Positions 28,398-64,000 of a stretch of 64,000 nucleotides of DNA are shown piece after piece. The translations under genes and the position numbers were made by a program. The first letter of the stretch is position 1; every line of letters starts with the position of its first letter. Under the pieces are notes generated by a model that saw nothing but the letters and a program-made list of their open reading frames with translations, did no database searches and was not told where the DNA came from. This DNA comes from Heptranchias perlo (Eukaryota), in assembly GCF_035084215.1 (NCBI RefSeq), contig NC_090366.1:3596001-3660000 (forward strand), read 5' to 3'.

Positions 28398-28655
28398 ATT
28401 GCACAGAAATCTGTGTGAAGCTCTTTGCGTTGCCTACGATATTTTCAGCAACGCACCAATATTGTCCGTCATCTTTAGAACTAATGTTGTGAAATATCTG
28501 CCTCAGTTCACCGGTGGAAGACATGCTGATCTCCGAACCATCTCTCACCCATCTTAAACTGACCGGTAGTTCACCCTGGGCCATGCAGTACAGTAATACT
28601 GAACTTCCTTCCACTGCTACTATCGAGGAATTGACGATTGGTTCCCGAGAGGCAG
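28398..28655 (-). CDS. Gene B exon: Ig domain 3 (C2/I-set)
   Basis: accag|CT..CAAT|gtaagt, 258 nt; VEGSSVLLYCMAQGELPVSLRW..DDGQYWCVAENIVG. Confidence 0.88.
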
Positions 28656-28762
28656 CTGGTAATGCGGAGGTCATTGGCGGTAAATGAGAATTCCAGCACA
28701 TAAGACAAAAAAAACAATTTAAGTGACAACCAGAGAGCAATATGTCGTGACTATTTTGTTAA

Positions 28763-30791: not shown

Positions 30792-31172
30792 CTAAAATAG
30801 AAATATTGGCCTGCGATCTGGAAGTGTATTGTTCTGTAACATTCCGGGCAGCGGTGATCTTCGGTCTGAAGAAATAGTCACCATCATCGCTCTTCCTGAT
30901 ATCTTTTATCCGTAAGGAACATTGTTTCTTTGCAAAGTTGCCGTTCAACTCAGTTCGTCCCATATAATTAAGGCTTATATTGTCTGAACTTTTGAGATCA
31001 TAGACAATAAAGACCCTTCGGCTACTAGGATCATAACCCCCCTTAAACCACACACCCCATGGACTGTGACCATCGACTGCATAATCAAATGTACACGGGA
31101 GCTCTGCACATGAACCCTTCACTGCCGACACAAACCACGGCATCTTCACAGACCATCGTGAACTCTGGACAA
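30792..31172 (-). CDS. Gene B V-set exon (Arg retained; GC donor)
   Basis: 381 nt, GSCAELPC..CSLRI..DDGDYFFR; donor reads AG|gcaagt. Confidence 0.9.
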
Positions 31173-31549
31173 CTGATGAAAAATAGAAATTAAACACCCA
31201 ATGAAATACACAATAATTTTCTAATTAAAAAATTCCCTGCCATCCCAGATAAACACTATTAAATGACCCTTCTAACACCCACTGATATTTCCCTCTCCAT
31301 ATCCATTTAAACTCGTAAATTTCCAACTGCAAATTTTCCGTTAAAATGTCCTTTATTTCCCAATCAAACACATTAATAGTCAATTATCCTAACAATTTAC
31401 AGAATTCAGTTCAGAATATAATATACATTAAAAACCTTCTTCGCGAATTTACAAATCACGAACGATGTATTATTTCTATAACTAATTACTTTGTTATTTT
31501 GCCACAAGATGGAAATCGCTTGAGAGAATTATTAAAAATAATATTTTAC

Positions 31550-33092: not shown

Positions 33093-34750
33093 TTGTGTAT
33101 CTGTAGCACGTGTTCTTTGTGTATCTGTACCGCATGTTCATTGCGTATCTGATCCATGTGATTTTGGGTATCTGTACCACGTTTCTTTTGTGTAGCTGCA
33201 CCACGGGTTCGTTGCCTACCCGCATCACATGTTCTTTGCCTATCTGTATCGAGTGTTCTTTGTGTATCTGCATCACATGTTCTTTCCGTATCTGTACCAC
33301 GTTTTCTTTGCGTATCTGTACCACGTTTTCTTTGTTGATCTGCACCACGTAGTCTTTGTGTACCTGTTCCACATGTTCTTGGTGTATCTGTACCAAGTGT
33401 TCGTTGTGCATCTGCAACGTGGTAATTGTGTATCCGTACAACATGTTCTTTGTGTAACTGTACCACGTCTTCTTTGTATAACTGCACCAAGTGTTTTTGT
33501 GTATTTGTACCCAATGTTATTTTCGGATCTGCACCCCTTGTTCTTTGTGTATCTGTACCACGTTTTCTTGTTGTATCTGTACCACGTGGTCTTTATTTGC
33601 CTGTACCACGTGTTCTTTGTTGATCTGCACCTCTTGATCTTTGTGTACCTGTACCACGTGTTATTTGTGCATCTGCACCACATTTTCTTTATGTATCTGT
33701 ACCACATATTCTTTGTGTGTGTGCACTAGTGTCTTTGAGCACCTGTACCACGTGAGCTTGGTGTACCTGTACCGCAATTCTTTATGTATCTGCACCACAC
33801 GCTATTCGTTTATCTGAACCATGTGTTCTTTATGTATCTGTACTGAATGTACTTCAAGTATCTGTACCAGGTATTCATTTCGTGTCTGTACCACGAGGCC
33901 CTTTTGTATCTGCACCACAAGTTATTTGTGTATCTGGACCATGTGTTCTTTATGTATCTGTACCACTTGTTCTTCATGCATCTGTACCACGTGTTCCTTG
34001 TGTATCAGTACCAGGTGTTCTCTGTGTATCTTCATATATTCTGCGCATATCTGTAACATGTGAGCATTGTGTATCTGAACCACGTGTTCATTGTTCATCT
34101 GTGCTAAGTGTTTTTGTGTATCTGCCCCACGTGTTCCTTGTGTATCTGTACCTGCGAATCTGTACCAGGTGTGCTTTGTATATCTGAACGACAATTATTT
34201 GTTTATCTGTGCCACGTGTGCTTTTTATAGCTATTTGTAATTATTTGTGCATTGGTACCAAGTTTTGTTTGTGCATCTGTAACACGTGTTCTTATTGTAT
34301 CTGGTCCACGTGTTCTTTGTGCATCTGTACGGCTTGTAATTTGTGTAACTGTACCAATTGATTTTTGTGTGTCTGTAACACGAGTTATTTGTGTATATGG
34401 ACCACGTGTTCTTTTTGTATCTGTATCACGTCTTCTCTGTGTATCTGTAGGGCGTGTGCTTTGTGTATCTGTACCACGTGATCCTTGTGTATCTGTACCA
34501 AATATATTTTGGGTGTCTGTACCACGTCTTGTTTGGGTATCTGTACTGCATGTTCTTTCTTACTCTGTGCTACCTGTTCTATGAGGATCTGAACCACGTG
34601 TTCTTTGTGCATCTGTCCCACGTGTTCTTTGTGGATCTGTGCCGCGTGTCTTTTTGGATTTGTGCCACGTGTTATTTGTGTATCTGTACTAAGTGTTCTT
34701 TGCGTATCTGTACCACGTGTTCTTTTTGTACCTGCACCACGTTTCCTTTG
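33093..34750. repeat. 24-bp minisatellite, copy 2
   Basis: Same unit as 7140-8490; longer array. Confidence 0.95.
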
Positions 34751-34758
34751 TGTTGCAG

Positions 34759-34915
34759 AGAGATCATTGTAATAATGAACTAGACAATAATGTCGGGGAA
34801 CTGATATCAGATTCGACTGAGCAGAACCAAAAAATTAATTACGCCAATGTGCACTCTTCAATTGTTCCTCTAGGGCATAGAAATGAGTCAATATGCCGAT
34901 ATTAAGTATAACTGA
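34759..34915 (+). pseudogene. Orphan ITIM exon, copy 2
   Basis: tgttgcag| RDHCNNE...KINYANVHS; same out-of-frame YADIKYN*. Confidence 0.55.
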
Positions 34916-38154: not shown

Positions 38155-40629
38155 CTGCAACAGAAAGCGGTGCGTTAGATATGGAGAGACTGGACCCTCT
38201 GAGAGTTAGCTTTCTGTACCAGAGTAAACGTCTTTATCCCATCTCTATGTGGACAGACTATTTCAACTAGATGGGTAAGGGAAAACAAGGGCCCATCATC
38301 GAAATACATAAAGGTAGTTTACATATCGGGAGGTTATTTTGTTCGGGCAAAGTGTCAATGATGCTTCGATCATCGATCTCTGCTGCCTTACTATGTTCCC
38401 ACTCAGTAACGAGAGCTTTTTGAGCTTTGCGTTGTACAAACATAAAAAAAGGCGGACAGGGAAAGTACCAACTGTCATGACGCTGGCGTTCTCTCCCACC
38501 ATCATGTAATCTCTCGCGAGATACAAAAAAAGAGATAAAAAGAACGAGGCCAATTCAGGGAAAAGAAATCCTTGCGGGGAGGTTTGCTAGCACTGTTGGG
38601 GGGTGGTGGGGTTAAACTAATTTTGCAAGGGGATGGGATACAGAGTGGAGCTACAATAGGGGGTGTTGTGCAGCCAAATATAGAGAAAAAAAAAATTCAG
38701 CTTGGAAGACAGGGCAAATATGTGAGGGCAAGGCTGGATGGCATCTATTTTAATGCAAGGAGTCTTGCGAATAAGGTGGATGAACTGAAGGTGTTGATAA
38801 ACACATGGGAGTATGATATTGTTGCTGTCACAGAGACATGGTTGAGGGAGGGGCAAGACTGGCTGCTCAATATTCCGGGGTACAGAATCTTCAGGCGAGT
38901 CAGAGGGGGAGGTATAAGAGGAGGGGGGTGGCAATATTAATTAAAGAATCAATTACTGCCATAAGGAGGGATGATATATTAGCAGGTTCCTCTAATGAGG
39001 CCATATGGGTGGAGCTTAAAAACAAAAAGGGGGCAAGCACTTTGATGGGAGTGTACTATAGGCCCCCAAACAGTCAGGGGGAGATAGAGGAACAGATATG
39101 TCGGCAAATCTCAGAAAATTGTGCAAATAATAGGGTAATAATAGTGGGGGATTTCAACTTCCCCAATATTAACTGGGATACTCAGAGTGTAAAAGGCTTA
39201 GAGGGTACAAAATTCTTAACGTGCATCCAGGAGAGCTTTTTGAGCCAGCATGTAGAAAGTCCTACAAGAGAGGGGGCGGTACTGGACATAATTCTAGGGA
39301 ATGTGGCCGGCCAAGTGGAAGAAGTGCTAGTAGGTGAACACTTTGGTGACAGTGACCATAATTCGGTGAGATATAAGGTGGTCATGGAAAAGGATAGCGA
39401 GGGGCCGGAAATAAAGGTTCTAAATTGGGGGAAGGCCGATTTTAATAGGATAAGGCAGGATCTGGCCAAAATGGACTGGGATCAGCTGCTTGTAGGAAAA
39501 TCCGCATCGGAGCAATGGGAGTCTTTCAGAAGGGAGATTGAGACCATACAATGGCAATATGTTCCCGTAAAGGTCAAGGGTGGTTCCAAGAACTCCAGGG
39601 AACCTTGGATGTCAGGGGATATACGAGAATGGATTAGGAAAAAAAGGACGGCTTTTGGCAGATACAAAAGGCTAAAGACGGAGGAAGCCCTAGAGGAGTA
39701 CAAAAAGTGCAGGGGGATACTTAAAAAAGAAATTAGGAGATCAAGGAGGGGCCATGAAATAACACTGGCGAGCAAAAGAAAGGAAAATCCTAAGATGTTT
39801 TATAAGTATATTAAGGGTAAGTGGATGACTAGGGGAAAAATAGGGCCCATTAGGGACAAAAATGGCAATCTGTGTGTGGAGCCGGCAGATGTAGGAGGGG
39901 TTCTAAATGAATTTTTTGCATCTGTTTTCACTATGGAGAAGGACGATGTAGACATAGAAATACGGCAGGGGGACTGTGATATACTCGAACATATTAACAT
40001 CGAGTGGGAGGAGGTATTGGCGCTTTTAGCAGGCCTAAAAATGGATAAATCCCCAGGCCCGGACGAAATGTATCCCAGGCTACTGTGTGAGGCAAAGGAG
40101 GAGATTGCGAGGGCTCTAACACAAATATTCAGAACCTCTCTGGCCACAGGGGATGTGCCAGAGGACTGGAGGACCGTTAATGTAGTACCATTATTCAAGA
40201 AGGGGAGTAGGGAAAAACCGGGGAACTGCAGGCCAGTGAGCCTAACATCAGTGGTAGGAAAATTATTGGAAAAAATTCTGAAGGACAAAATTAGTCTCCA
40301 CTTGGAGAAGCAAGGATTAATCAGGCATAGTCAACATGGCTTTGTCAAGGAACGATCATGTCTGACTAATTTGATTGAATTTTTTGAGGAGTTGACGAGG
40401 CGTGTGGATGAGGGTAACGCAGTGGATGTGGTACACATGGATTTCAGTAAGACCTTCGATCAAGTCCCCCACAGGAGACTGGTCAAGAAGGTACGAGACC
40501 ATGGAATCCAGGGTGCCTTGGCACTTTGGATACAAAACTGGCTTAGTGGCAGAAGGCAGAGGGTGATGTTCGAAGGTTGTTTTTGTGACTGGAAGCCTGT
40601 GGCCAGTGGGGTACCACAGGGATCGGTGC

Positions 40630-41164
40630 ACAGGAGGGCAGGAAAAAGAGTGGCAGAGCTATAGTGATAGGGGACTCGATTGTAAGGGGAATAGACAGGC
40701 GTTTCTGCGGACGCAACCGAGACTCCAGGATGGTATGTTGCCTCCCTGGTGCAAGGGTCAAGGATGTCTCGGAGCGGCTGCAGGACATTCTGGAGGGGGA
40801 GGGTGAACAGCCAGTTGTCGTGGTGCATATAGGCACCAACGATATAGGTAAAAAACAGGATGAGGTCCTACAAGCTGAATTTAGGGAGTTAGGAGTTAAA
40901 CTAAAGAGTAGGACCTCAAAGGTAGTAATCTCAGGATTGCTACCAGTGCCACGGGTTAGTCAGAGTAGGAATGACAGGATAGCTAAGATGAATACGTGGC
41001 TTGAGAGATGGTGCAAGCTGGAGGGATTCAAATTCCTGGGCCATTGGAACCGGTTCTGGGGGAGGTGGGACCAGTACAAATTGGACGGTCTGCATCTGGG
41101 CAGGACTGGAACCAATGTCCAAGGGGGAGTGTTTGCCAGTGCTGTTGGGGAGGGTTTAAACTAA
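40630..41164 (+). CDS. CR1 ORF1 C-terminal SGNH/GDSL esterase-like domain (partial)
   Basis: IGDSIVR, HIGTND and DGLHL blocks, characteristic of CR1 ORF1 esterase domains. Confidence 0.9.
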
Positions 41165-44112
41165 TGTGGCAGGGGGATGGGAACCGATGCAGGAAGCCAG
41201 TGGGAAATAAAGTGGTGACAGAAACAAAAGGCAGTAAGGGAGAGTGTACAGAACATGACCGGACAGATGGTCTGAGAAAGCAGGGCAAAGACCAAGGGAA
41301 GTCTAGATTAAACTGCATTTATTTCAATGCAAGAAGTCTGATGGGCAAGGCAGATGAACTCAGGGCATGGATGGGTACATGGGACTGGGATGTTATAGCT
41401 ATTACTGAAACATGGCTAAGGGAGGGGCAGGACTGGCAGCTCAATGTTCCAGGGTACAGATGCGATAGGAAAGATAGAGCAGGAGGTAAGATAGGAGGGG
41501 GAGTTGCGTTCTTGATTAGGGAGAACATCACGGCAGTAGTGAGAGGGGATATATCCGAGGGTTCGCCCACTGAGTCCATATGGGTAGAACTGAAAAATAA
41601 GAAGGGAGAGATCACTTTGATAGGATTGTACTACAGACCCCCAAATAGTCAACGGGAAATTGAGGAGCAAATATGTAAGGAGATTACAGACAGCTGCAAG
41701 AAAAATAGGGTGGTAATAGTAGGGGACTTTAACTTTCCCAACATTGACTGGGACAGCCATAGCATTAGGGGCTTGGATGGAGAGAAATTTGTTGAGTGTA
41801 TTCAGGAGGAATTTCTCATTCAGTATGTGGATGGCCCGACTAGAGAGGGGGCAAAACTTGACCTCCTCTTGGGAAATAAGGAAGGGCAGGTGACAGAAGT
41901 GTTAGTGAGGGATCACTTTGGGACCAGTGATCATAATTCCATTAGTTTTAAGATAGCTATGGAGAAGGATAGGTCTGGCCTAAAAGTTAAAATTCTAAAT
42001 TGGGGAAAGGCCAATTTTGATGGTATTAGACAGGAACTTTCAGAAGTTGATTGGGAGAGTCTGTTGGCAGGCAAAGGGACGTCTGGTAAGTGGGAGGCTT
42101 TCAAAAGTGTGTTAACCAGGGTTCAGGGTAAGCACATTCCTTATAAAGTGAAGGGCAAGGCTGGTAGAAGTAGGGAACCTTGGATGACTCGGGAGATTGA
42201 GGCACTAGTCAAAAATAAGAAGGAGGCATATGACATGCATAGGCAGCTGGGATCAAGTGGATCCCTTGAAGAGTATAGAGATTGCCGGAGTAGAGTTAAG
42301 AGAGAAATCAGGAGGGCAAAAAGGGGATATGAGATTGCTTTGGCAGATCAGGCAAAGGTGAATCCAAAGAGCTTCTACAAATACATAAAGGGCAAAAGGG
42401 TAACTAGGGAGAGAGTAGGGCCTCTTAAGGATCAACAAGGTCATCTAAGTGCGGAACCACAAGAGATGGGTGAGATCCTGAATGAATATTTGACATCGGT
42501 ATTTACGGTTGAGAAAGGCATGGATGTTAGGGAACTTGGGGAAATAAATAGTGATGTCTTGAGGAGTGTACATATTACAGAGAGGGAGGTGCTGGAAGTC
42601 TTATCGCGCATCAAGGTAGATAAATCTCCGGGACCTGATGAAATGTATCCCAGGACGTTATGGGAGGTTAGGGAGGAAATTGCGGGTCCCCTAGCAGAGA
42701 TATTTGAATCATCCACCGCGACAGGTGAGGTGCCTGAAGATTGGAGAGTAGCAAATGTTGTGCCTTTGTTTAAGAAGGGCGGCAGGGAAAAGCCTGGGAA
42801 CTACAGACCAGTGAGCCTGACATCTGTAGTGGGTAAGTTGTTAGAGGGTATTCTGATGGACAGGATCTACAGGCATTTGGAGAGGCAGGGACTAATTAGG
42901 AACAGTCAGCATGGTTTTGTGAGAGGAAAATCATGTCTCACGAATTTGATTGAGTTTTTTGAAGGGGTAACCAAGAAGATAGATGAGGGCTGTGCAGTAG
43001 ACGTGGTCTACATGGACTTCAGCAAAGCATTTGACAAGGTACCGCATGGTAGGTTGTTACATAAGGTTAAATCTCATGGGATCCAAGGTGAGGTAGCCAA
43101 TTGGATACAAAATTGGCTTGACGACAGAAGACAGAGGGTGGTTGTCGAGGGTTGTTTTTCAAACTGGATGCCTGTGTCCAGCGGTGTGCCTCAGGGATCG
43201 GTGCTGGGTCCGCTGTTATTTGTTATTTATATTAATGATTTGGATGAGAATTTAGGAGGCATGGTTAGTAAGTTTGCAGACGACACCAAGATTGGTGGCA
43301 TTGTGGACAGTGAAGAAGGTTATCTAGGATTGCAACGGGATCTTGATAAATTGGGCCAGTGGGCCGATGAATGGCAGATGGAGTTTAATTTAGATAAATG
43401 TGAGGTGATGCATTTTGGTAGATCGAATCGGGCCAGGACCTACTCCGTTAATGGTAGGGCGTTGGGGAGAGTTATAGAACAAAGAGATCTAGGAGTACAG
43501 ATTCATAGCTCCTTGAAAGTGGAGTCACAGGTGGATAGGGTGGTGAAGAAGGCATTCAGCATGCTTGGTTTCATTGGTCAGAACATTGAATGCAGGAGTT
43601 GGGATGTCTTGTTGAAGTTGTACAGGGCATTGGTGAGGCCACACTTGGAGTACTGTGTACAGTTCTGGTCACCCTATTATAGAAAGGATATTATTAAACT
43701 AGAAAGAGTGCAGAAAAGATTTACTAGGATGCTACCGGGACTTGATGGTTTGACTTACAGGGAGAGGTTAGACAGACTGGGACTTTATTCCCTGGAGAGT
43801 AGGAGGTTAAGGGGTGATCTTATAGAAGTCTATAAAATAATGAGGGGCATAGATAAGGTCGATAGTCAAAATCTTTTCCCAAAGGTAGGGGAGTCTATAA
43901 CGAGGGGGCACAGATTTAAGGTGAGAGGGGAGAGATACAAAAGGATCCAGAGGGGCAATTTTTTCACTCAAAGGGTGGTGAGTGTCTGGAACGAGCTGCC
44001 AGAGGCAGTAGTAGAGGCGGGTACAATTTTGTCTTTTAAAAAGCATTTGGACAGTTACATGGGGAAGATGGGTATCGAGGGATATGGGCCAAGTGCAGGC
44101 AATTGGGACTAG
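41164..44112 (+). CDS. CR1 ORF2: AP endonuclease + reverse transcriptase, uninterrupted (982 aa from the ATG at 41164)
   Basis: NARS, ITETW, GDFN, SDH (APE); KSPGPD, YRPVSL, DFSKAFD, GVPQGSVLGP, FADD (RT); TAATG stop/start overlap with ORF1. Confidence 0.95.
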   Translation: MWQGDGNRCRKPVGNKVVTETKGSKGECTEHDRTDGLRKQGKDQGKSRLNCIYFNARSLMGKADELRAWMGTWDWDVIAITETWLREGQDWQLNVPGYRCDRKDRAGGKIGGGVAFLIRENITAVVRGDISEGSPTESIWVELKNKKGEITLIGLYYRPPNSQREIEEQICKEITDSCKKNRVVIVGDFNFPNIDWDSHSIRGLDGEKFVECIQEEFLIQYVDGPTREGAKLDLLLGNKEGQVTEVLVRDHFGTSDHNSISFKIAMEKDRSGLKVKILNWGKANFDGIRQELSEVDWESLLAGKGTSGKWEAFKSVLTRVQGKHIPYKVKGKAGRSREPWMTREIEALVKNKKEAYDMHRQLGSSGSLEEYRDCRSRVKREIRRAKRGYEIALADQAKVNPKSFYKYIKGKRVTRERVGPLKDQQGHLSAEPQEMGEILNEYLTSVFTVEKGMDVRELGEINSDVLRSVHITEREVLEVLSRIKVDKSPGPDEMYPRTLWEVREEIAGPLAEIFESSTATGEVPEDWRVANVVPLFKKGGREKPGNYRPVSLTSVVGKLLEGILMDRIYRHLERQGLIRNSQHGFVRGKSCLTNLIEFFEGVTKKIDEGCAVDVVYMDFSKAFDKVPHGRLLHKVKSHGIQGEVANWIQNWLDDRRQRVVVEGCFSNWMPVSSGVPQGSVLGPLLFVIYINDLDENLGGMVSKFADDTKIGGIVDSEEGYLGLQRDLDKLGQWADEWQMEFNLDKCEVMHFGRSNRARTYSVNGRALGRVIEQRDLGVQIHSSLKVESQVDRVVKKAFSMLGFIGQNIECRSWDVLLKLYRALVRPHLEYCVQFWSPYYRKDIIKLERVQKRFTRMLPGLDGLTYRERLDRLGLYSLESRRLRGDLIEVYKIMRGIDKVDSQNLFPKVGESITRGHRFKVRGERYKRIQRGNFFTQRVVSVWNELPEAVVEAGTILSFKKHLDSYMGKMGIEGYGPSAGNWD

Positions 44113-44451
44113 CTTAGTGGTATAAACTGGGCGACATGGACATGTTGGGCCGAAGGGCCTGTTTCCATGTTGTAACTTCTATGATTCTATGATTCTATGA
44201 TTCTATGGGTCCCTTGCTGTTTGTGGTCTACATTAATGACTTGGATATGAATGTAAAAGGTATGATCAGTAAGTTCGCTGATGATACAAAAATTGGTAGG
44301 GTGGTAAATAGCGAGGAGGACAGCCTCAGTCTGCAGGACGATATAGATGGGTTGGTCAGATGGGCGGAACAGTGGCAAATGGAATTTAACCCGGAAAAGT
44401 GCGAGGTGATGCACTTTGGAGGGACTAACAAGGCAAGGGAATACACAATGA

Positions 44452-45220
44452 ATCATGGAATCATAGAATCATAGAAGTTACAACATGGAAACAGGCCCTT
44501 CGGCCCAACATGTCCATGTCGCCCAGTTTATACCACTAAGCTAGTCCCAATTGCCTGCACTTGGCCCATATCCCTCTATACCCAACTTACCCATGTAACT
44601 GTCCAAATGCTTTTTAAAAGACAAAATTGTACCCGCCTCTAGTACTGCCTCTGGCAGCTCGTTCCAGACACTCACCACCCTTTGAGTGAAAAAATTGCCC
44701 CTCTGGACCCTTTTGTATCTCTCCCCTCTCACCTTAAATCTATGCCCCCTCGTTATAGACTCCCCTACCTTTGGGAAAAGATTTTGACTATCGACCTTAT
44801 CTATGCCCCTCATTATTTTATAGACTTATATAAGATCACCCCTTAACCTCCTACTCTCCAGGGAAAAAAGTCCCAGTCTGTCTAACCTCTCCCTGTAAGT
44901 CAAACCATCAAGTCCCGGTAGCATCCTAGTAAATCTTTTCTGCACTCTTTCTAGTTTAATAATATCCTTTCTATAATAGGGTGACAAGAACTGTACACAG
45001 TACTCCAAGTGTGGCCTCACCAATGCCCTGTACAACTTCAACAAGACATGCCAACTCCTGCATTCAATGTTCTGACCAATGAAACCAAGCATGCCGAATG
45101 CCTTCTTCACCACCCTATCCACCTGTGACTCCACTTTCAAGGAGCTATGAATCTGTATTCCTAGATCTCTTTGTTCTATAACTCTCCCAACGCCCTACCA
45201 TTAACGGAGTAGGTCCTGGC
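44452..45220 (-). mobile_element. Second young CR1 copy (3' ~770 bp), inverted, nested in the host CR1
   Basis: Reverse complement almost identical to 43432-44206. Confidence 0.92.
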
Positions 45221-47239: not shown

Positions 47240-50200
47240 CTCTTGATTCAAAAAATACAAATGCTGTCTATCACGTAATTACTGGTAATTAGTTTTAATA
47301 AATCATCCAGTGTCCGTATGGTGAATCACGCGCGTGCACTATCGCAGCAGCGATTTGTTATCATAGTGGCCTTGTAGGTAGAGCACAGGAGGAGACCATT
47401 CGGCCCAGCGGGCCTGTGCCACCTCTTTGAAAGAGCTATCCAATTAGTCACATTCCACTGCTCTTTCCCCATTGCCCTGGATTTTTTTTCCTTCAAGTAT
47501 TTATCCAATTCGCCTTTGAAAGTTATTATTGAATTTGCTTCCACCGCCCTTTCAAGCGGAGCATTCCAGATCATAACAACTCGCTGCGGAAAAAAATATT
47601 TCCTCATGTCACTTCTTTTGCCGATCACCTTAAATCTATGTCCTCTGGTTACCGACCCTTCTGCCACTGGAAACAGTTTCTCCTTATTTACTCTGTTAAA
47701 ACCGTTCATGATCTTGAACACCTCCATCAAATCTCCCCTTAACCTTCTTTCTTCTGAGGAGAACAATCCCAGCTTCTCCAGTCTCTCCACATAACTGAAC
47801 TCCCTCATCCATTGGACTTCCTTGATTAGATGGAACCATATTTCAGTTCCGTTCGCTTTCTATCTCTACACTGCCATAATCCTTAAGGAACGTTTCTCTC
47901 GATCTGATAAAGTAGGTAAATTCTATCGTCATCTGCTTTGACATTCCCAAATTTAGTGTTCACTGTACAGTTTCTGAATGGTCGACTGAGCGCCGGCGAC
48001 TGATGCAAAGTATCTATTTGAAATCACATGTCCTAAACGTTGGCGTGAGTTTGCCCTGCAGTGTCCTGGAATGGCTCTGTGGAGTTTTTTTGTTATTACC
48101 TCCTGAGTCCTGAGTTTTCGATTGGCGTTTGTTTTAAGAACTTTGAACTTACAAGTGAAAGAGCTACGAACGCGCCATGGTCCAGAGTGGAGTTATTCTG
48201 GTCTATTACCAGAGCTGGGAGAAGGGATACACCGATCAGGGTCGATTGACACTCGGATATTGCCCTACTTTCACCACAGATTCACCCGACCTCCATTAAC
48301 CCTTCCCTCCACAACTGGTAGCTAACATTGATGTGCAATGCTTTCAGGTTTTAAGTATTTTAAGAAATATTTTCTCATAGGCTGAAATCCTGATGTCACA
48401 GTCCCTTTGAAATCTGTCTGACTAATTCATGAGTGTAAATAATTGTAAATCATACCTGTATGAATTCCTCTCTATCTTCACCATGGAAATGGCAGCAATC
48501 AGAATGAAAACTGCGACCGCTGTTCTTATTGCCATGACAATTTTCCATGAAATTGTTCCTAAAATATTCAGAAAAAAAGACCTTGCTGCTGACTATTGTA
48601 CTAAGATTACAACACGGTGTTCGGATAGCATTTATCCTCAAGTACCGGAATCTGTAAAGAAAGAACTCGCACTTCACGCCATCCCAAAGCGCTTTACAGC
48701 CAATGAAGTACTGCTGAAAAGTAGCCACTGTTGTAATGCAGGGAACGCGGCAGCCAAATTGCGCATGGGAAGATCCCACAAACAGCGATGAGGTAATGAC
48801 CTCGTGATCTGTTTTTAGTGATGTTGGTTGAGCGATAAATATTGGCCAAGACGCAAGGCGAGAATTTCCCTGCTCTTATTCCAAAGATTAAACAGTACAG
48901 TTTCGAAGTGCAGTCCCAGGAGGGTGTATATGCACATATTGTATCCTCGGATCTGTTTCCGTCCTATCCAATATTTCAATTCAGTCTGTAATCTGCTTTT
49001 TTCCAATTATCCCAGGTATTCTGGCTCCATTTGCAGGATTATCGCACTTTATATTCTTCTCAGAATATCGTCACGGTAACAATCCGAGGAGCAATCTGAA
49101 CTAGACATAAGAACTGCTTCATTAAACTGTGCGAACAGGATGGAACAGAGCTTGTATCAATTGACTGATAGACAGCAGCACGCAACGGTTACAGTGAGAG
49201 GAAACAGGACTTCATACAGCGTGTAATTAATTCAGCAGGTTCCGTTTTGTTGAAGATCGCACGCTACTTCTATTGTTGTATATTAATCCCTTCCGAACTC
49301 AACAAAATCCAGGCATCAGTAAACCTTGGCCGGGTTATGGAAAATCATTGACAAATTTAAAATGGATTATTCCGATTGCAACTTTCAGTGCGTCATTGGT
49401 CGGTGAGGGGCCAGACCCCTTTAGTTCTGAAATTATCCGTCGATTCTGTACTAAATTACTGGTGGATTTGGCAATTAACTGCCAAATGGAGCTGGTATTT
49501 GCTGACGCTAACACCGTTCACCTAATGACGGGCCAATAATCAAAGAACCTTTCTACAGTAATTAAATTGCTGCAAATATCAGGACTTACCTGCTGAATGG
49601 AGTTGATGTTTGCCGAAAGTAACGCCGTGCTCGTTTGCTGCAACACATGAGATCTGGTTTCCAGTACGAGTTGGGTGAGTCAGTGTCAGGGAGTTCGGCA
49701 CCAGGTGACCATTCACTGCCCAGGAGATAACTTCATCTGAACTGTTCCGAGTGATGGTTCTTCCATTGAGACCCCATGTGATATTTGCCGGGGGGTTGGC
49801 TCTGACACTGCAGGTACAATCAATCCCACTCTCAGAAATGGTGCAGTTCGGGCCTGATACTACTGAAGGTTTATCTAAAAAAAAGAGGCAATTTCAACTT
49901 CAGGTAGTTTTCATCAAGCAGTTTGCAGTGTCTAAGTAGAACCGATTTGGACCTTTAGACTAACCAGAGAGGTTACTGCACAGCCGTGTTTAATTGGAGC
50001 CATACAAAGATACATTCGTTTAATGGATCATCAGATTTTGCTTTTTGCGAAATTCTAGCAATCAATAACTCAGTTATAAGTTCACATCGAACCAATGAGC
50101 GGTCATTTGATCCATTTATCTTCATGCTGTGGGCGATTACTCGGTTAGAATACTGTAAACAATACAGACTAACTCACCTCAACTGTCCGTTCTGGTAAAA

Positions 50201-53200
50201 CTGTTAGTATTTAATCTTATAAACTTCTACCTTTGTGATTGACTAACGTGTTCTTCCACTTCAGGGCCGCTGGGATCAATCCCCCGCACATTAATTCTTG
50301 CGTTTCACATCTCACATATTCATTAATTTTGTTTTAACCAGTCCAGATACATTTTACGTGGTTTTGTGCATTGGGCTCTCTGGTTTTTAACGATGTTTTT
50401 TCACTCTAAATATGGTCAAATTCTCCTTCTTTTACTGGCCTTCCTGAAAATATTACTGACATCGGCTATTGAGAGAGTTGTGTGAACACGGGGGAAATAA
50501 CACCAATGCGTAGTCACTGTGGAGCGGATCTCTGATGTCCCTTTTAACATTTAATAGATTCACACAGTACTTACGTTGTATAAATGATATAATGTTAATC
50601 AGTTACTCTGTGGCTAAAACGGTAATCTGGCATTGGGATCCTTTGGAATAATATTGGACATAAATCACACCCGAGGAACCACCAGCATTACTCCAATGGT
50701 CTGGGAAAAATTTTAATCAGAGTGACTGACAAGAATTAACTGATAGACAGTCCTTTTAATTGATTATCCAGTCTCGGTCTCACTACATTGAGCATAACAA
50801 CAACTTTAGAACCTGTTTATCAACAAGCTAGTTGAATCAAGCATAGAGCGGGTATTTACATTCAACGGCCATTGTAAGTGTTTTCTGAACAGTAGCTTCG
50901 ACACCTTCAACTATAAGTTTACATCCCAGCGTTTTCCCATGAATGTCCGAGGATGGGACGAAGGTGAAAATGGATGAAACCCTCCGGTAACCATCGAAAC
51001 CGTTGACATTCTGTTCTGAAGTTTTAGTCTCTGTCTGAAAAGGAAAGTGTCCTTGATCATAAGTCCACTTCAGCTCAAGGTTGGCGGATGGGCAATTGTG
51101 GGTGATCGAGCAGGTCAGTTGCGCTGGTTGTCCAGCGATCAATTCCCCAGAGACTGATATACTTGTTTTTTCTGTAAGGGGAGAAGGAAATTATAGTGAA
51201 TTTCAATTTTGAAAACGGCCAATAATGTGCCAGGCGATTCAACCCAAGGACTGGGAAAATATCACCTTAAAAATGAATCCTGTTCTATTCCTCCTGCTCT
51301 CAGCTGCAGGGAATGATGCCTCAAGTCAATTACTCCTTACAATTACTGAACTAATCGGATCACATATGCACTCAGCCGCTTTATCACATGAATTATTCAC
51401 GTTATTGGCCAGTGAATTAATTTCCACTCACCCCCACTACGTTGCTGACAATTCAAAATGAGCACTTCAAATATCAGCAAGCATTAAACCCGCTCATGTC
51501 CTCATTGGGTAAATAAATTGCTTGATGTGATACTGTACCATTAGGCCAGCCCGGTCCCACATTCCATCCCAAGTCTGTGGCTGGGATAGAACCTGGTATC
51601 TTCTTTGCCCGAACTGCTTCAAAAAACGATGGCTGAAGATAGTCCTGACTGGGAACCGAGAGCCTGATACAATCTTACGGGAGGAAACAACAAACAGGCC
51701 TGTCCTGAAAAAGTCATGCAGTCTTCAGCGGAAATATCATGCTGGTGGTGTGCGATGGAATCAATAATTAAATCAGAATTGGAAATCCGGTCAATTGTCG
51801 CGTAGGCATTAGGTTATTAAATATTGAAAGACAAATCTCAGTCCCAAACCTGCGGGGACTCGGGAAGGTCTCTGTAAAACTTAATCTGTCGGTGATGAGG
51901 AAGCGAAAATTGTGAACTTATATTGTTTAATAATCGGAGAAAGGGACAAATTTAGTAGTTTTAGGTGACTGGGAGTTGCCCTGTGGGTTTCACCACCCAT
52001 CGGTCATTAGGTATTTTGGGAAATTTATTTGTTGAAAATTGTACTTGGACGATTGGAAATTGGTCCTTATTGGCCTTTTCTTTATTATGATAATGGACTT
52101 AAAATTATCACTTGGGATAATAACAGAAGACGTTTCTGTCTAATTTCTTGCCACGCCGTTTTAGTGAGCTTTTCTCCATCTATTCTACACGGGTTAACAT
52201 TTCAGCTAAACCTAAGCATTCAAAGGCTCCAAGTGCATGGTTTAATTTGGCGGCCCGTGAGCTCTTTAACGAATTTGTTTGAGTCGGGTTACTGGGATAA
52301 ATAACCCGCAGTCGTTATTCATGCACTCTTTATGACCTGCGCGGTGTGACAATTCATGGAAAAACGTACAAAGAGACGCGTCCATCTGACTCCCATTGGG
52401 ACTATTCAAGGTAAAGCAGGGATGTTCTCCCCGCTGTCTTGGCCAAAATATATCCACCAAGAAACTCCTAAAAACAGATTACCTGATCATTATCTCATTG
52501 CTGTTTGAGAGACCTTGCTGTGCGACAATTGGCTGGGGGATTTTCTACATTACACAAATCATTACGCTTCAAAGTACTTCATTGGCTGTAAAGCTTATTG
52601 GGATGTCCTGATATTTGAAACTCCCGATATCAATTCAATCTTTATTTTTTATTCCTTTATGATATGGAGACCTATAGGTGATTTGACCCTAGAAATCCCT
52701 CCCGTGTTTAAACCATGTCCACCTTCCCTTCCATCAGAATTGCAAACGATGACTTACTTTTGCGCATCAATTATGGATTGAAGTTTGACCCGCCGGTCTG
52801 TACGGTTGCACTTACTAACTGAACAACGCAGGGCGCTTCTGTAAGTTTTTAAGAATACCAATGCCATTTTTCAACTCAAGTCAAGTATTATTCAATGGAC
52901 CAGCCCGGCAGCTGTCGCCAGTGACGAAGGCCAAAAGTATCACGATAACTTTGCATCCGTGGTTTAAATTAAATGGCACTGAGGAGACGGAATATAAACT
53001 ACAAAAAGAACAAATGAAAAAATCTTACCTAAAATATAAAGACTGACGTGAGATGCGGATGTGTTTTGTTCTATACTATACTGGGATTTGCTGATCTTCG
53101 GTCTGAAGTAATAGTCACCTTCATCACTCTTCCTGATATCTTTTATCCGTAAGAAACATTGTTTCCTTGCAAAGTTGCCGCTCAACTCAGTTCGTCCTCG

Positions 53201-53822
53201 ATAATTAAAGTTTATTTTGTCTAAATCTCGGGGATCATGGACAATAAAGACCGCATGGCTTCTAGGGTCAGAACCCCCCTTCAACCACATACCCCATGGA
53301 CTGTGGCCATAGACGGGATAATCAAATGTACACGGGATCTCTGCACATGAACCTTTCACTGCCGACACAAACCACGGCATCTTCACAGACCATCGTGAAC
53401 AAAGGACAACTGATGAAAAATAGAAATTAAACACCCATTGAAATCCCTAATAACATATCAATTGAAACATTCCATGGCATTCCAGCTAAATACTGTTAAA
53501 AATAACCTTTAAACATTCACGAACATATTCATTAGTACGTCTATTAAAGCGTGTGAAATTATCACTAAAACTCTTTAAATTCCATCAAAATGTCGATTAC
53601 AGTCGAAGAAAACAGAAATATTCAAAAAATATCCTACTAAAATACAGAATAAAAGTCCGAATACAATGTACCTTAAATACCCACTTCTGAATTTACAAAC
53701 CACTAAATAACCATATACGATTTGTATCACTAATTACCTTGTTACTTTGCCACATAAGTTGTTAAAAAGAATATTTTACCGTTGCTAAATAGCAGGATGA
53801 AAATAACCTTAATGCTCTTCAT
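47158..53822 (-). CDS. Siglec-like gene C, putative activating type (V + 2 C2 + Arg-TM + short tail), ~401 aa
   Basis: Exons 53822-53780, 53409-53029, 51171-50860, 49874-49590, 48558-48456 and 47239-47158 join in frame (1206 nt) without internal stops; the acceptor of the last coding exon is the least certain part. Confidence 0.8.
47380..47810 (-). mobile_element. CR1 LINE 3' fragment
   Basis: ERLEKLGLFS.E.RRLRGDL..TRGHRFKV..QRVVMIWN. Confidence 0.88.
48456..48558 (-). CDS. Gene C transmembrane exon with intramembrane Arg
   Basis: ttttag|GA..AG|gtatga, 103 nt; GTISWKIVMAIRTAVAVFILIAAISMVKIERNSYR. Confidence 0.85.
49590..49874 (-). CDS. Gene C membrane-proximal Ig exon
   Basis: Intact 285-nt paralog of 27149-27433, GT-AG. 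Confidence 0.88.
50860..51171 (-). CDS. Gene C Ig domain 2 exon
   Basis: Intact 312-nt paralog of 819-1130. Confidence 0.9.
53029..53409 (-). CDS. Gene C V-set exon (Arg retained)
   Basis: 381 nt; GSCAEIPC..CFLRI..DEGDYYFR; GT-AG. Confidence 0.92.
53780..53822 (-). CDS. Gene C signal-peptide exon
   Basis: MKSIKVIFILLFSN + G|gtaaaa, 43 nt. Confidence 0.8.
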
Positions 53823-57277: not shown

Positions 57278-58685
57278 TTTGTGTATCTGTAGCACGTGTT
57301 CTTTGTGTATCTGAACCATGTGTATTTTGGGTATCTGTACCACGTGTCTTTTGTGCAGCTGTATCACTTTTTTTGTAGCTATACCACGTGTGCTTTGACT
57401 ATCCATATCGAGTGTTCTTTGTATATCTGCATCACATGTTCTTTCCGTATCTGTACCACGTGATTTTATGTATCTGTGCTACGTGTTCTTTGTTGATCTG
57501 TAACAACTAGTCTTTCTTTACCTGTTCCTCGTGTTTTTGATGTATCTGTACCATGTGTTCCTTGTGCCTATGTAACGTGATGATTGTGTATCCTTACAAC
57601 ATGTTATTTGTGTAACTGTACCACGTGTTCCTTGTGTAACTGTACCACTTGTTTTTTGTGAATACATACCCAGTGTTCTTTTTCGATCTATCCCCCGTTT
57701 TCTTTGTGCATCTGTACTACGTCTGCTTGGCGTACGTTTACCACAATTCTATGTGCATCTGCACCAAATGCTATTTGTGTATCTGAAACAAGTGTTTTTA
57801 TGTATTTGTACCGAATGTACTTTGTGTATCTGTACCACGCGCTCCTTTTATATGTGCACCACATGTTATTTCTGTATCTGGACCATGTGTTCTTTATCTA
57901 TCTGTACCACTTGTTCTTTGTGCATCTGTGCCAGGTGTTCCTTGTGTATCTGCACCAAGTGGTGTTTGTGTATCAGTACCACGTATTTTTTATGCATCTC
58001 CATATATTCTGCGCATATTTATAACGTGTGAACATTGTGTATCTGTATCACGTGTTCGTTTTGTATTTGTACCAAGTGTTCTTTGTGTATCAGTCCCACG
58101 TGTTCATTGTGTATCGGTACCAAGTGTTCTTTGTGCATCTGTGCAAGTCTTCTTTGGCTATCTATTTCTGCGTATCTGTACCAGATGTGTTTTTTTTTAA
58201 TCTGCACAGCAATTATTTGTGTATCTGTGTCACGTGTGCTTCGTATAGCTTTTTTGTGTATTGGTACCAAGTTATGTTTGTGCATCTGTAACACGTGTTC
58301 TTTGTGTGCCTGCAACGCGTGTACTTTGTGTATCTGTACCACGTAATCTTTGTGTATCTGTAAATCGCATCCTTTTTGTATCTGTACCAAATATTCTTTG
58401 CGTATCTGTACCAGTGCCTTGTGTATCTGTGCAAAATGTGCTTTGTATATTTGTACCACAATTCTTTGTGTATCGTAACACGTGTTTTTTTGTGTATCCG
58501 TACCACGTGTTCGATAATTGTCTGTGCCTCGTGTTCTTTGTGGATCGGTACCACGTGTTCTTTGTGTATCTGCCCCACGTGTACTTTGTGGATCTGTATA
58601 ACGTGCCTTTGTGTATCTGTACCAACAGTTCTTTTTGCATCTGCACTCTCTGTTCTTTGTGTACCTGCATCAGATTTCCTTTGTA
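57278..58685. repeat. 24-bp minisatellite, copy 3
   Basis: Colinear with 7140-8490. Confidence 0.95.
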
Positions 58686-58691
58686 TTGCAG

Positions 58692-58848
58692 GGAGGTCAT
58701 TGTGAGAACGATCCAGACAATAACGTCGGGGAACTGATAGCAGATTCGACTGAGCAGAAACAAGAAATTAATTACGCCACTGTGCACTTTCCAACTGTTC
58801 CTCCAGGGCATAGAGTTGAGTAAATATGCTGATATTAAGTATAACTGA
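58692..58848 (+). pseudogene. Orphan ITIM exon, copy 3
   Basis: tattgcag| GGHCENDP...QEINYATVHF..RVE*; out-of-frame YADIKYN*. Confidence 0.55.
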
Positions 58849-58890: not shown

Positions 58891-59656
58891 TGTTGGCCAG
58901 GAGCTGCAGAAAACTACTGAGTTCAATTCGAATTGCTGACAAAGAGACTAACTTTTGAACTGAGGTGACCTGGAGTTCAGTTACTGGTCTGAACTGGCCA
59001 GAACCGGTTTCAATTCGTTCCGCTTCTTAGAGGGACAAAGGAGCTTTGATGAGACACCAGGCCTTATTTAGAAAAGGAGTAATGAGGTGATGCTACCAAG
59101 CCCCTTGGAACAGAGCCAATCAGGGGATGACACTGACCACTCCAGCAACTTTAAGCCAACCGGAGAAGACAGCATCATTCGAAAAGACAGGCTTGAATTT
59201 AAAACTGAAAAAATGCAGGCTTGGTGCCAGTGGTTTGTGAGGGAGACTCCGGAGACGAACCATCGCGGAAATAGGGACCCTACGTCAGGGACGTAGAGAC
59301 TACGTCAGGGACGTAGAGACGACGTCGAGAGATAGAGAACGAATCGCCTGGCCAGCATTATCTCTCCTTTCCAGGTAACATAATATCCTTTCTATTCTGT
59401 GACCACTCAGGGAGTGTTAGTCAGAGAAACCTAGTGGGTGTGCGTTTAAATCTTAATACTCAGGGAGTGTTAGTCAGGGAAACCTAGTGGGTGTGCGTTT
59501 AAATCCTAGTTTGAGTATAAAACTGTATAACTTGCTGTACACTGCATGCCTATATCTAAGCAGACGTATAAGCGGTATGTACATGATCTAAAGAGAGAAT
59601 TGACTCTTCCTCTGTGTACTAAGCCAAAACCTGTAACCGGTGACTTCCCGTCAACA
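58891..59656 (+). repeat. 5' LTR (766 bp)
   Basis: TGTTG...CAACA inverted termini, followed 4 nt later by the PBS; internal 20-bp and ~52-bp tandem repeats. Confidence 0.85.
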
Positions 59657-59660
59657 TCTT

Positions 59661-59682
59661 TGGCGTCCCTGGGTGGGCTCGA
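59661..59682 (+). promoter_or_regulatory. Primer-binding site complementary to tRNA-Asn(GTT)
   Basis: TGGCGTCCCTGGGTGGGCTCGA is the reverse complement of the vertebrate tRNA-Asn 3' end TCGAGCCCACCCAGGGACG-CCA (recalled sequence). Confidence 0.85.
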
Positions 59683-59786
59683 GGATAAATCTCTCCATTG
59701 CGTCAGTAGGAGCCTCGAGGCGAACCGAATTTGGCAAAGTATACAGAGAACAGGAGTTTGGGTTAATTCATAGTTAATAACGTAAG

Positions 59787-61520
59787 ATGACGAATAAAGG
59801 GAAATCACCAAGCCCTGGGGACTTGGACTGTTTTGATTGGAAGGGACTCCTTCAAAAATATTTAATAGGGAAGTGGCCGCAATACGGGGAGTATGCGGGT
59901 CACATTGGAGACAAGGGAACGCCTGTTGGGGAGGTCCTTTGGAGAATTGCGCAAAGAAAGATGTCAGATAGGAAATTTAAAAAGATACAGAAGTCCGTAG
60001 CGATCGGATGTTTACTTGAGGAATGGATAGAATGCCGACAGCAGGCTAGGAGAGAGAGAGAAGAGACTCAGAAAATCCAAGACGGATTAGAATTAGAGAA
60101 TAAAAAACTCCGTGAGGAGCTAGCCCGCCTTAGTGCGAAGGTAACTGATCTACAGGGACAGAGAAGTGCAGATTTGATGCACATGAACCAATATCAGTTA
60201 CATTGCGAAAAATTGATCAATGAAAAGAGTAAGAGAGAGGGAAACAACAATGTAGTGATTTAAAAACTGCTATGAATGTGATTCACAGATCAGCTCAGGA
60301 GAAGAGGAGTAGTCCCGGCGATCACACAACGTGTCAGAAAGTGATATGGAGTCTGCAAGATCAGCCAGCCGCACAGAGGGGCGTATTGTGTGCTTTTGCA
60401 GCCGGAAGAGGTGAAGAAAGTGGTCTAGGGGATGTAGATTGGGATAATTTAGCAGACGAGGCGGATAGATACAGCAGCGGTGATAGGGAACCTCCACTAG
60501 GGGACCCACCGCCAGCATATGCTGCAGAGCCGAAAAAACCGCCTGCCCCAATGGCCCCCCTTGTAACCACTAGAGCACAGATGGGGTAGGATGGCCAGGA
60601 TATGAAATATCCCACCCCACTTGGGGTACAAGAACTGAGGGTTATTGCGAAAGATATTGGGACGTGTGCGCCTGGGGATGACCCTAGTGAGTTGTTCCTA
60701 GCGGGCAGGCAACAGAGAGCAATACACGGCTTAGACGATGCTGAGGAAAGGAAATTAATCCTAATGTGCCTACACCCACATATACACTCCGCCCTAACGG
60801 AGGAACAAAAACTTGGTAGAGGCACGAATGAAGCCTTAAAGGACCAGGTATTATCTGTCATGGGCGATAACAGAGGGGATCCAGTGGAGGCGCTGATGAA
60901 ATGCTATCAAAGAAAAGGTGAACACCCCACTGTATTTTCGGCCCGAATTTGGGCAGTGTTTCAGGGGGACTACGGTGCAGACTTAGACAGGGATAATTTA
61001 CAGCGGGAGGTTAGGAACCGATGGCTGAGAACACTAGTGTCGCATGGCACTGAGGAGTCGAGGAAGGCACTAGATCAGTTTGACCCCGCTGATGACACAC
61101 ATACGGAACCCAGGATAATTAGGAAGATGTTTAGAGTATGGGAAAGGGAAATACCAAAACGATCCAAGGCATCTGGGAACAGAGCAATGCCTGTTAGAGA
61201 TCAGGCGATAACCTGGAGAAATGAAGGGAGGGGACCTACTCAGGGGGAACCCCCTCCAGCTTATCAGACAGTGGGAAGAGTTAGAGGCAGAGGAAGAGGA
61301 AACTTCTCGGGAACGGGGAGAGCTCAAGGCGAGGTGTCCAACTGCTATAACTGTGGCCAGGAGGGACACTTTGCAAGGACTGCCCGAACCCGAGACGAGA
61401 GAATGCAAGTCGTGGAAGAAATCAGACCCTACCCGTGAAAGGGCCGAATAGACCAAGTCCTCAATGTGATACGATAGACATATCACCGAGTTCCGGTTTG
61501 TGCCCCGAACTGCAATGACG
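59787..61520 (+). pseudogene. gag: gag, disrupted
   Basis: Coiled-coil N-terminus, PPPAY late-domain motifs (twice), capsid-like segment, GR-rich stretch, CYNCGQEGHFAR(DC) zinc knuckle with the last Cys displaced by a frameshift. Confidence 0.8.
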
Positions 61521-61539
61521 GTCTCAGGCCTCTCCATTA

Positions 61540-63950
61540 TGGGTGTGTGACGCGCGGTTGGATGACACGGGGAGACCCCCAGTGAATGGTAGGGTCGGAG
61601 GCCGCCCTCTTACATTCCTTTGGGACACGAACCACTGTTAACACCACTCAGATCAATGACATAGATTGGAAAATTCAAAACAAAATTATTCTAATTGGAT
61701 TCACAGGGCATTCACAAGTGGGATATGTGAGTGTACCGTTGGAAGTCGGTGTGGGAGACATAGTGATAGAGCATTCAGTGGTCCTTATTAAATTACCCAG
61801 AGAAAAAGAACATATATTGGGGAGTGACTATATGGCCCAAAGCGGGAATTTGCTTCGACCCCGTTAAGTGCATGATTTGGCCAATGCCTTTGCGTATCGG
61901 CAGTATAAATCTCACACTCGTCCCGGTGGGGGAATATCAGGATAGGATATGCACGATCGGAGAAATGTGGATAGAATCAGGAGAAATGAGTAACGATCGT
62001 GAAGTACAACAAATTATTGCACAAAACTCAACAGTATTTGCGCGACATATACGTGACTGTGGGAAAATGACCGGGAGTGTGTGTATACAAGGTCCAGACA
62101 CCAAACCTCAAAAGCAGTATGGTTTCCCAAAGCAAGCAGGGATAGAGAAGGTGATACAGAGTCTGCTGCAGCAAGGGATATTAAGACCAATAGCTTCTAT
62201 TAATAACGCGCCTATTTGGCCAGTGAGGAAACCCGACGGTAGCTGGCGACTAGCGATAGACTACAGAGAATTAAATAAAGTCACCCCGATAACAGCCCCT
62301 ACTGTAGCAACTAGCCCAGAGACAGTAGTTCGACAAAACGAGGATGCGCAGTGGTTTACGGTTTTGGACATAAGTAACGGTTTTTGGTCTATTCCAATGG
62401 AGAAAGAATGTCAATATAAATTTGCATTTACTTTCCAAGGACAGCAGTATACATGGACCGCCCTGCCACAGGGGTTTCACAATTCCCCGTCCATATTTCA
62501 CCAACGGCTGAGGGAAGGGTTAAAAGGATTCTCAAGGCCTGAATGTCTAGTACAGTATGTAGACGACTTACTCCTACAAACTGAAACCAAGAAGGAACAT
62601 TATCAACTGCTAATTGAATTACTGCAGTTGTTACATGACTTGGGATTAAAGATTAACCCTAAAAAAGCGCAGATCATGAAACAAAAAGTTAGTTTCTTGG
62701 GAATGATTCTGACGCCGGGACGAAGGGACATTGACAAGCGAAGGGTAGAGACGGTTGGCAGACTCCCTGTTCCACGGGATGTAAAAGGGTTAAGGTCCTT
62801 CTTGGGGTTGGTGGGATATTGCAGGGACCATATTGATGGATTCGCCACAAAGGCGGCCCCGCTGATGGAATTATTAAAAAAGAATGTGGCCTGGGATTGG
62901 AAAACAGAACACAGCCAGGCCATGACTGATCTAAAGCAAGCACTAGCTGCCGCGCCTGCTCCAAAAAGCCCAAATCCAACTGAGCCGTTTTCATTGGAGG
63001 TGGCGACCACAGACACCACCCTCTCGGCAGTTCTATTACAGGAGACACACGGGAAATTAAGACCAGTAGCGTACGCCTCACGTATGCTCTCACCAGTAGA
63101 GCAGGGGTATACGGTATGCGAAAGACAATTGCTCGCTGTCTTTTGGGCAGTGCAGCATTTTACCTATATAGTGGGACTAAACCCACTTACAATATTAACA
63201 GAACACACCCCCGTACAGCTACTGTTAGACAGAAGGATTAAGGATGGTTCAGTTAGGCAAAATAGAATCGCTAGATGGACATTGTTGCTGCAAGGGAGAA
63301 ATATAACCATAAAGCGGGTTAAAACCACAACTATGTTAGGAGACAACTTAGTTTATCAGGGAGAAAAACATGAGTGTCAATTGTTGATAGCAAATGACCC
63401 CAAGGGCCCATTTGTATCAAAACCAAAAGGAAGGGGTAAGTCGGGGCCTGAAAGCAGAAAGACAAAGGAAACAGGAAAGGAAGAACCCTATTTTATTTTT
63501 TTTGTGGATGGCCCTTCATTAGTACAGGATGGGGAAAAGAGAACTGGCTATGGGATATACATAGAGTTGAGCCCCGGACAGAGAGTAATGATTAGAATAC
63601 AACAGCCCACCTCATTCATGAGTCCAAAGTTTGCCGGTCCCGATGAGATAGTAGGCAAAGCTAGCCCATCTGTAAACAGGATATTAACGGCACCAGATAA
63701 GAGTGGCTGGTGCCACATTAATCAGCTAAAGTTGGTAGGAGAAAAACAAGATAATCACCATTGGCATGTGCTGCTCGATGATAACGATGTTCCGAATTCT
63801 GAAGGTCAGGGAGATCAAGAACAGGACCAGCTGCAGGTCCAAGAGGAGGTGATTGAAAACAAATTTGATACTGTCCGTTCACATGCAGAGGCGAATCCAG
63901 GGAAAAAACGAAAGGGGCATAAAACAAAAAGGGTGAATAAGTGGGTTTGA
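61540..63950 (+). pseudogene. pol: pol: degraded protease, RT, degenerate RNase H tether, truncated RNase H fused to integrase C-terminus
   Basis: WPVRKPDGSWRLAIDYRELN, LDISNGFW, LPQGFHNSP, YVDD; RPVAYASR..CERQLLA; FVDG..GYG; PKFAGP..HINQLK. Confidence 0.9.
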
Positions 63951-64000
63951 AGAAACGGACGGTTAGAATCTGAAACAAATTGGGAACAGGATATGGACGG

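Follow-up and report, generated by a model that had tools for sequence, protein, structure and literature searches.

A probable snakehead-retrovirus-like provirus, internally deleted, in an immune-receptor gene cluster of the shark Heptranchias perlo

The window analysed here is a stretch of 64,000 nucleotides from the shark Heptranchias perlo (assembly GCF_035084215.1, contig NC_090366.1, positions 3,596,001 to 3,660,000, forward strand). Positions 58891-64000 of this window hold the 5′ part of a provirus: a long terminal repeat (LTR), a primer binding site (PBS) for tRNA-Asn, gag, pro, a reverse transcriptase (RT), a catalytically dead tether and the start of a second RNase H. The provirus is defective, has a tether, a second RNase H and an internal deletion, and is most probably a member of the snakehead-retrovirus-like group (clade Huo, class III-related), here among the endogenous retroviruses (ERVs) of a hexanchiform shark. 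Its membership in the Retroviridae is evident from the tether and the second RNase H, and from an RT that falls inside the canonical retroviruses (support 100/98). Within an already described group, it represents a new and apparently unnamed family, here in the form of a defective copy.

Structure of the provirus

The provirus comprises the following features:

58891..59656, + strand: 5′ LTR of 766 bp, TG...CA (start from two empty paralogous sites; end inferred)
59661..59678, + strand: tRNA-Asn PBS, identical to the 18-mer called a tRNA-Asn PBS in PMC4261875
59787..60263, + strand: gag piece 1, an N-terminal domain and a long predicted helix, coiled-coil like; frameshift near 60233-60242
60233..60589, + strand: gag piece 2, with an acidic DW motif and PPAY at 60509; closed by an in-frame stop (60587-60589)
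60590..61438, + strand: gag piece 3, putative capsid, PPAY at 61253, GR box at 61274-61300, zinc knuckle at 61340-61378
61351..61518, + strand: end of gag with TGA at 61516-61518, the protease starting next in the same frame (three-frame translation)
61519..61870, + strand: protease, with frameshifts near 61628 (active-site motif) and near 61837 (three-frame translation)
62001..62860, + strand: RT, open frame, YVDD at 62556-62567 (Pfam RVT_1 at 62223-62711, PDB sequence matches, trees)
62973..63330, + strand: tether, a degenerate Ty3-type RNase H (Pfam; alignment with Gypsy RNase H)
63498..63563, + strand: second RNase H, first two strands, ~22 residues (profile match, alignment)
63561..63566, + strand: in-frame deletion junction with a 6-nt overlap (contig ends; profiles)
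63564..63950, + strand: integrase C-terminal domain, GPY/F-type (ends at 63734); charged tail up to the pol stop

A first-pass annotation, made from the letters of the sequence, had recognised many of these parts. The RT motifs that it quoted, WPVRKPDGSWR, FAFTFQGQQYTWTALPQGFHNSP and YVDD, all lie in a single frame of 726 codons (61770-63950) which matches the Pfam families RVT_1 (E 5e-36) and RT_RNaseH (E 7e-24). It also described a Ty3-like RNase H lacking the first catalytic aspartate. This was correct for the first column, but not for the first alone: alignment with seven Gypsy RNase H domains shows that all three catalytic carboxylate columns are changed in the tether. The Gypsy rows keep carboxylates at the first and third columns in 7/7, and the middle column aligns with a glutamate. 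The proposed start of a second RNase H was upheld by a profile built from 10 relatives, which matches at positions 4-38 only (13.1 bits; best of 500 shuffled tails, 9.0).

What the first-pass annotation had missed is an internal deletion, beyond which the frame that follows the TGYG motif encodes an integrase C-terminal domain. At 63564-63734 this domain scores 28.7 bits with profiles from 10 full-length relatives (best of 500 shuffles, 4.0), and profiles from 10 relatives found no match to the remainder of the RNase H, the integrase zinc finger or the integrase core. The gap spans 454-495 residues in nine relatives and 596 in the reference locus L107 (10,688 nt), which from its length and layout we take to be snakehead retrovirus; ~1.4-1.5 kb are deleted here. 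Contigs of other copies, assembled from sequencing runs, diverge from the window after 63566 (run X5) and rejoin it before 63561 (runs X1 and X5), which fixes the junction together with its 6-nt overlap. This overlap suggests either a template switch in reverse transcription or microhomology-mediated repair after insertion. Because the second RNase H and the integrase are largely deleted, the copy is non-autonomous, and with gag and pro broken too it is unable to replicate alone.

In Gag, a single uninterrupted helix is predicted for residues 61-156 (predicted local distance difference test, pLDDT, mostly >90), as would be expected of the coiled coil already proposed for this region. The two PPxY motifs, the GR-rich box and the CCHC knuckle reported earlier were likewise recovered. 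The knuckle matches Pfam zf-CCHC at E 1e-5 over profile positions 2-14 of 18; it is broken by a frameshift near 61378, and its last cysteine lies in a different frame in this copy. At the frameshift near 60233-60242, contigs of other copies differ from the window in 4/4 runs, and loose contig ends coincide with both protease frameshifts. The DW motif has a weak match to a Heterodontus ERV protein (E 0.009), and the ESM Atlas neighbours of the third gag piece carry zf-CCHC and Retrotrans_gag. A single-sequence model of the putative capsid reached a pLDDT of 46 and had no fold match at E 0.001, an uninformative outcome, and in a search for Gag in longer proteins 0 of 3179 candidates passed. The layout in which the protease follows gag across one stop is shared with L107 and with locus L091, where the stop is an in-frame TAG. 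A UGA followed by C may be a leaky stop.

The end of the LTR is placed at the CA at 59656 because the PBS follows 4 nt on and because summed contig depth, which is not a copy number, drops ~tenfold between bins 59505-59685 and 59686-59866 (runs X1 and X5). A hexamer scan found no canonical poly(A) hexamer in the 5′ LTR of this copy. The LTR carries short tandem duplications at 59281-59320 (~20 nt) and 59406-59508 (~53 nt); both, like 59591, are places where the contigs of other copies are variable. The PBS, for which the assignment to tRNA-Asn had been made from the outset, occurs once in the window and is part of a 22-nt match to locus L097. Contigs with the element's family were found under three organism labels, and the longer contigs among the matches listed diverge from this copy at ~3-5 letters per 100 (e.g. 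28/819 and 65/1270). The window ends 50 nt past the pol stop; the env region and the 3′ LTR lie outside it.

From these parts the parent virus can be sketched. Its minus-strand synthesis would be primed by host tRNA-Asn, and Gag-Pol would be made by UGA read-through, as the layout of snakehead retrovirus suggests with UAG. The second RNase H would be the active one, and budding would proceed via the PPxY motifs. An env would be expected downstream, probably of gamma type as in CmiERV lineage I of the elephant shark.

Position of the reverse transcriptase among retroviruses

The viral references were drawn from a viral collection and are named on our own assumption, from genome length, layout and motifs. 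The loki-type rows, which include eel and medaka proteins, were identified not by name but by the likeness of their motifs to those in the supplement of PMC7947760. Careful trees and approximately unbiased (AU) tests used 48 of the 94 rows, picked to keep every group, and 257 columns (LG+G4).

With 48 rows and LG+G4, a clade of 13 rows (97/92) unites the element with L107 and 11 relatives. The element lies within the canonical retroviruses (100/98), to which the loki-type rows (99/99) are sister. The same clade with L107 appears in a quick mixture tree of all 94 rows (SH-like approximate likelihood-ratio test, SH-aLRT, 91), and the careful mixture tree retains both the canonical retroviruses (100/98) and the sister position of the loki-type rows. 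Foamy rows group at 100/100 without the element in both careful trees. The deep-branching position suggested by the first-pass annotation is thus borne out by the RT trees (LG+G4 and careful mixture). The RT phylogeny proposed there as a check also agrees with its view of a true retrovirus and not a Gypsy element, union with the Gypsy RTs being rejected by the AU test (p 0.0003). Its suggestion of a loki-like element finds no support in the RT: union with the loki-type RTs is rejected at p 0.004 (3 rows), 0.0003 (12 rows) and 0.0004 (13 rows).

In RT identity, the element shares 50% with L107 and ≤43% with any row outside the family. The figures are 39% to gamma (3 rows), 38% to epsilon (6 rows), 38% to foamy (37-39%, 4 rows), 36% to loki-type (34-39%, 5 rows) and 31% to Gypsy rows (30-33%, 7 rows). 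A metagenome scan returned 70 loci, none with >42% identity.

The earlier annotation called the element possibly undescribed. As regards the group this does not stand, since it is in print (PMC4299795, PMC4422223 and PMC6001957); the particular shark family, for its part, appears unnamed. CmiERV lineage I of the elephant shark clusters with snakehead retrovirus (SnRV; PMC4422223), and clade Huo, related to SnRV, is found in all major vertebrate lineages (PMC6001957). Judging only by the order of labels in its text, the tree figure of PMC6001957 puts ca_mi_ERV1 next to SnRV under the Clade Huo label. Over the RT core of ca_mi_ERV1/CmiERV lineage I, 69 of 103 residues match the element (hand count). 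Both have a chondrichthyan host and an LTR of ~0.8 kb, and by eye they have in common a single zinc knuckle, a tether, a second RNase H, a Gag whose N-terminal region is long and charged, and integrase C-terminal domains that resemble each other. They differ in LTR sequence, and CmiERV lineage I possesses a full RNase H, an integrase and gamma-type env features (by eye), whereas the present copy is internally deleted. PMC4299795 records a Gag zinc finger and a GPY/F-like motif in some SnRV/Ovex1-related ERVs, and the lack of both in ERV4. The element has both of these traits, which sets it apart from ERV4.

The SnRV-like clade is also described in PMC4977317 and PMC12193657, the latter naming SnRV as the sole exogenous member. 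L107 is, by RT, the nearest named exogenous virus. It resembles the element in its zinc knuckle, in a gag and pol that share a frame interrupted by just one stop, and in the long tail after the integrase C-terminal domain; it has UAG where the element has UGA. Databases also hold unnamed relatives with 45-68% RT identity, in which the tether and the domain order are as in the element and several of which keep a full RNase H and integrase. They come from frog (P0001, P0002, P0052, P0061), coelacanth (P0008, P0071) and turtle (P0006), and further include P0051, a Mustelus fragment (P0038) and eel-type sequences (P0003, P0005, P0011) near an_an_ERV3 of PMC6001957, whose eel elements resemble P0011. 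The Mustelus asterias protein P0038, labelled "lipid symporter", starts with Pol fragments from an ERV close to this one (66% identity) and is probably a chimeric gene model. We found no paper on a Heptranchias perlo retrovirus or on this family in a search, judged for the family by titles and the beginnings of abstracts, outside of which lay subscription journals, Repbase, Dfam and bioRxiv supplements, where the family may be catalogued. PMC9447858 and bioRxiv 10.64898/2026.05.06.723177 held nothing on the SnRV-like group.

Alternatives and the relatives' RNase H and integrase

Several observations weigh against a place among the SnRV-like ERVs. In the careful mixture tree the clade with L107 falls below 80 and collapses to a basal polytomy of non-foamy retroviruses. 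ERV-L, Odin and the foamy-like ERVs of fish and sharks are absent from the rows of the trees, and union with the foamy RTs is not rejected for 12 family rows (p 0.116) and is borderline for 3 rows (p 0.045). Outside the zinc knuckle, the element's Gag has no significant match to that of L107 and cannot be aligned with it. No stable stem-loop was found 3′ of the TGA (z +0.6 vs base shuffles). The primer site differs from that of CmiERV lineage I as well as from that of L107. Finally, the second RNase H and the integrase of the relatives, the element's own domains being deleted, do not group with those of L107. In the second RNase H tree, 10 family rows stand with the loki-type and foamy rows (97/94), apart from L107, gamma and epsilon; the integrases of 10 family rows are 43.3% identical to the loki-type ones, against 42.9% among themselves, 31.7% for L107 and 31.4% for foamy.

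The trees of these two domains are unrooted. For the second RNase H, 16 of 46 rows were dropped and 30 kept. For the integrase, 10 of 56 chosen rows were dropped, having no match or <150 matched columns (all 3 beta/lenti, 5 of 8 loki-type, L102 and P0131). The relatives compared included P0001-P0004, P0052, P0061 and P0008, against P0112, P0109 and P0224. The free integrase tree is unresolved, and NYNRIN itself is absent from its rows. AU tests did not reject a union of the family with loki-type integrases (p 0.6), which scores above the free tree, nor one with L107 (p 0.12). Both PMC7947760 and PMC9040795 caution against relying on trees of the RNase H and the integrase. An ancestral Pol module may survive in the group, which we regard as a lead and not as a result.

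Lokiretroviruses are defined in PMC7947760 and Odin retrotransposons in PMC9040795. That the element should be the first lokiretrovirus of a cartilaginous fish is extremely improbable, although on the level of sequence the loki-like impression has a real basis in the tether and in the relatives' RNase H and integrase. With lokiretroviruses and Odin the element shares a tether combined with a new RNase H. The family's tether scores 44-71 bits against loki-type tethers, 34 against L107, 21 against L091 and 20-63 against Gypsy rows, a likeness of family and loki-type which may reflect shared ancestry. The relatives' integrase is as near to loki-type as to other family members, and the top relatives are automatically named NYNRIN-like. 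The RT decides otherwise: all three AU tests place it outside the loki-type clade, and the RT motifs from the loki supplement are absent from it. PMC7947760 reports no lokiretrovirus among the chondrichthyan genomes that it covered.

A basal foamy-related ERV (clade Tu), akin to the foamy-like ERVs of shark and frog (PMC5512871 covers foamy-like ERVs), is unlikely, but of the alternatives to an SnRV-like provirus it deserves the most attention. The PBS equals that of galago foamy virus and uses the same tRNA as a newt foamy-like ERV; the GR-rich box, the union with foamy RTs that the larger test leaves standing and the foamy- and loki-sided second RNase H of the relatives point the same way. 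Foamy Gag, however, lacks a zinc knuckle, and foamy Pol is made separately from Gag, whereas the element has a knuckle and a pro in frame after gag past one stop. Its RT also lies outside the foamy clade, with 38% identity against 50% to L107. In PMC6001957 the chimaera foamy-like ERVs stand under Tu, apart from Ca_mi_ERV1.

It is also conceivable, though we hold it to be very unlikely, that the whole family and not just this copy is non-infectious, an env-less derivative spread within the genome as a retrotransposon. The internal deletion would suit this, as would the LTR bins, whose summed depth of ~10x the internal bins (runs X1 and X5) fits many solo LTRs. Against it stand the two retained PPxY budding motifs and the env carried by both CmiERV lineage I and L107. 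A Gypsy/Metaviridae retrotransposon is refuted. Pfam puts the first RNase H in Ty3-type families and the Atlas neighbours of Gag are retrotransposon Gags, but the three altered catalytic columns, the second RNase H and the AU test exclude it. A defective SnRV-like provirus remains the best explanation.

A wider picture is possible rather than probable. The shark family would then be part of a slow-evolving grade of canonical retroviruses in which the tether, RNase H and integrase have stayed in an ancestral form that lokiretroviruses also have. Retroviruses would have possessed the loki-type integrase from the start (or lokiretroviruses would have taken it from this grade), and it would not be a loki-specific replacement. 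Of the candidate sources for the mammalian NYNRIN RNase H-integrase, this grade would be the best.

Host locus and significance

The broken endogenous retrovirus sits within a shark immune-receptor gene cluster. The 64-kb window is a tandem array of Siglec/CD22-like immunoglobulin receptor genes with a period of ~25 kb, in which two kinds of exon were recognised, the second carrying a motif like an immunoreceptor tyrosine-based inhibitory motif (ITIM):

2739-3233, 27081-27470, 28357-28758, 30505-31224, 49582-49893, 52967-53446, all − strand: Siglec/CD22-like exons
8500-8646, 34759-34905, 58692-58823, + strand: exon with ITIM-like Y motif, three paralogous copies (INYATV in the third, its acceptor and frame from sequence)

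One flanking V-set exon matches a Heptranchias perlo protein at 96% identity and a Heterodontus protein at 46% (3 matches among 87 candidates), in accordance with the cartilaginous fish host that had been guessed from the letters. The ITIM-like exons lie on the strand opposite the Siglec exons, and the third copy (58692-58823) has an earlier stop. In all three gene copies the intron 5′ of the ITIM-like exon contains a degenerate 24-nt tandem repeat (57280-58680, ~7100-8480, ~33100-34750). The provirus begins 67 nt beyond the stop codon of the third ITIM-like exon. When the three paralogous regions are aligned they are identical up to 58890, after which the third continues with TGTTGG and the other two run on in host sequence. 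Because these two sites are empty, the insert is specific to the third paralog and starts at 58891.

Elsewhere in the window, CR1/L2-type long interspersed nuclear element (LINE) material occupies 38817-44109 (+ strand), with an SGNH-esterase open reading frame 1 (40589-41161) and two endonuclease-RT frames, one of 615 codons and an open one of 1035. The material is possibly young, and one element may have entered another or landed behind it. The LINE's 3′ end has an inverted repeat of 746 nt (43465-44210 / 44443-45188), its arms 98% complementary and 232 nt apart. No tRNA gene was found within the 64-kb window.

By itself, a single defective copy has little significance. Through it, a group already known but sparsely documented gains a hexanchiform shark family whose primer is tRNA-Asn and whose gag-pro junction is a UGA, and its insertion provides a marker for dating duplications in the shark Siglec-like receptor cluster. 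Of more significance, if it holds, is the side finding that the RT is that of a canonical retrovirus whereas the relatives' RNase H and integrase are of loki/foamy type; it bears on the scenario set out in PMC7947760, in which RNase H and integrase were repeatedly replaced.

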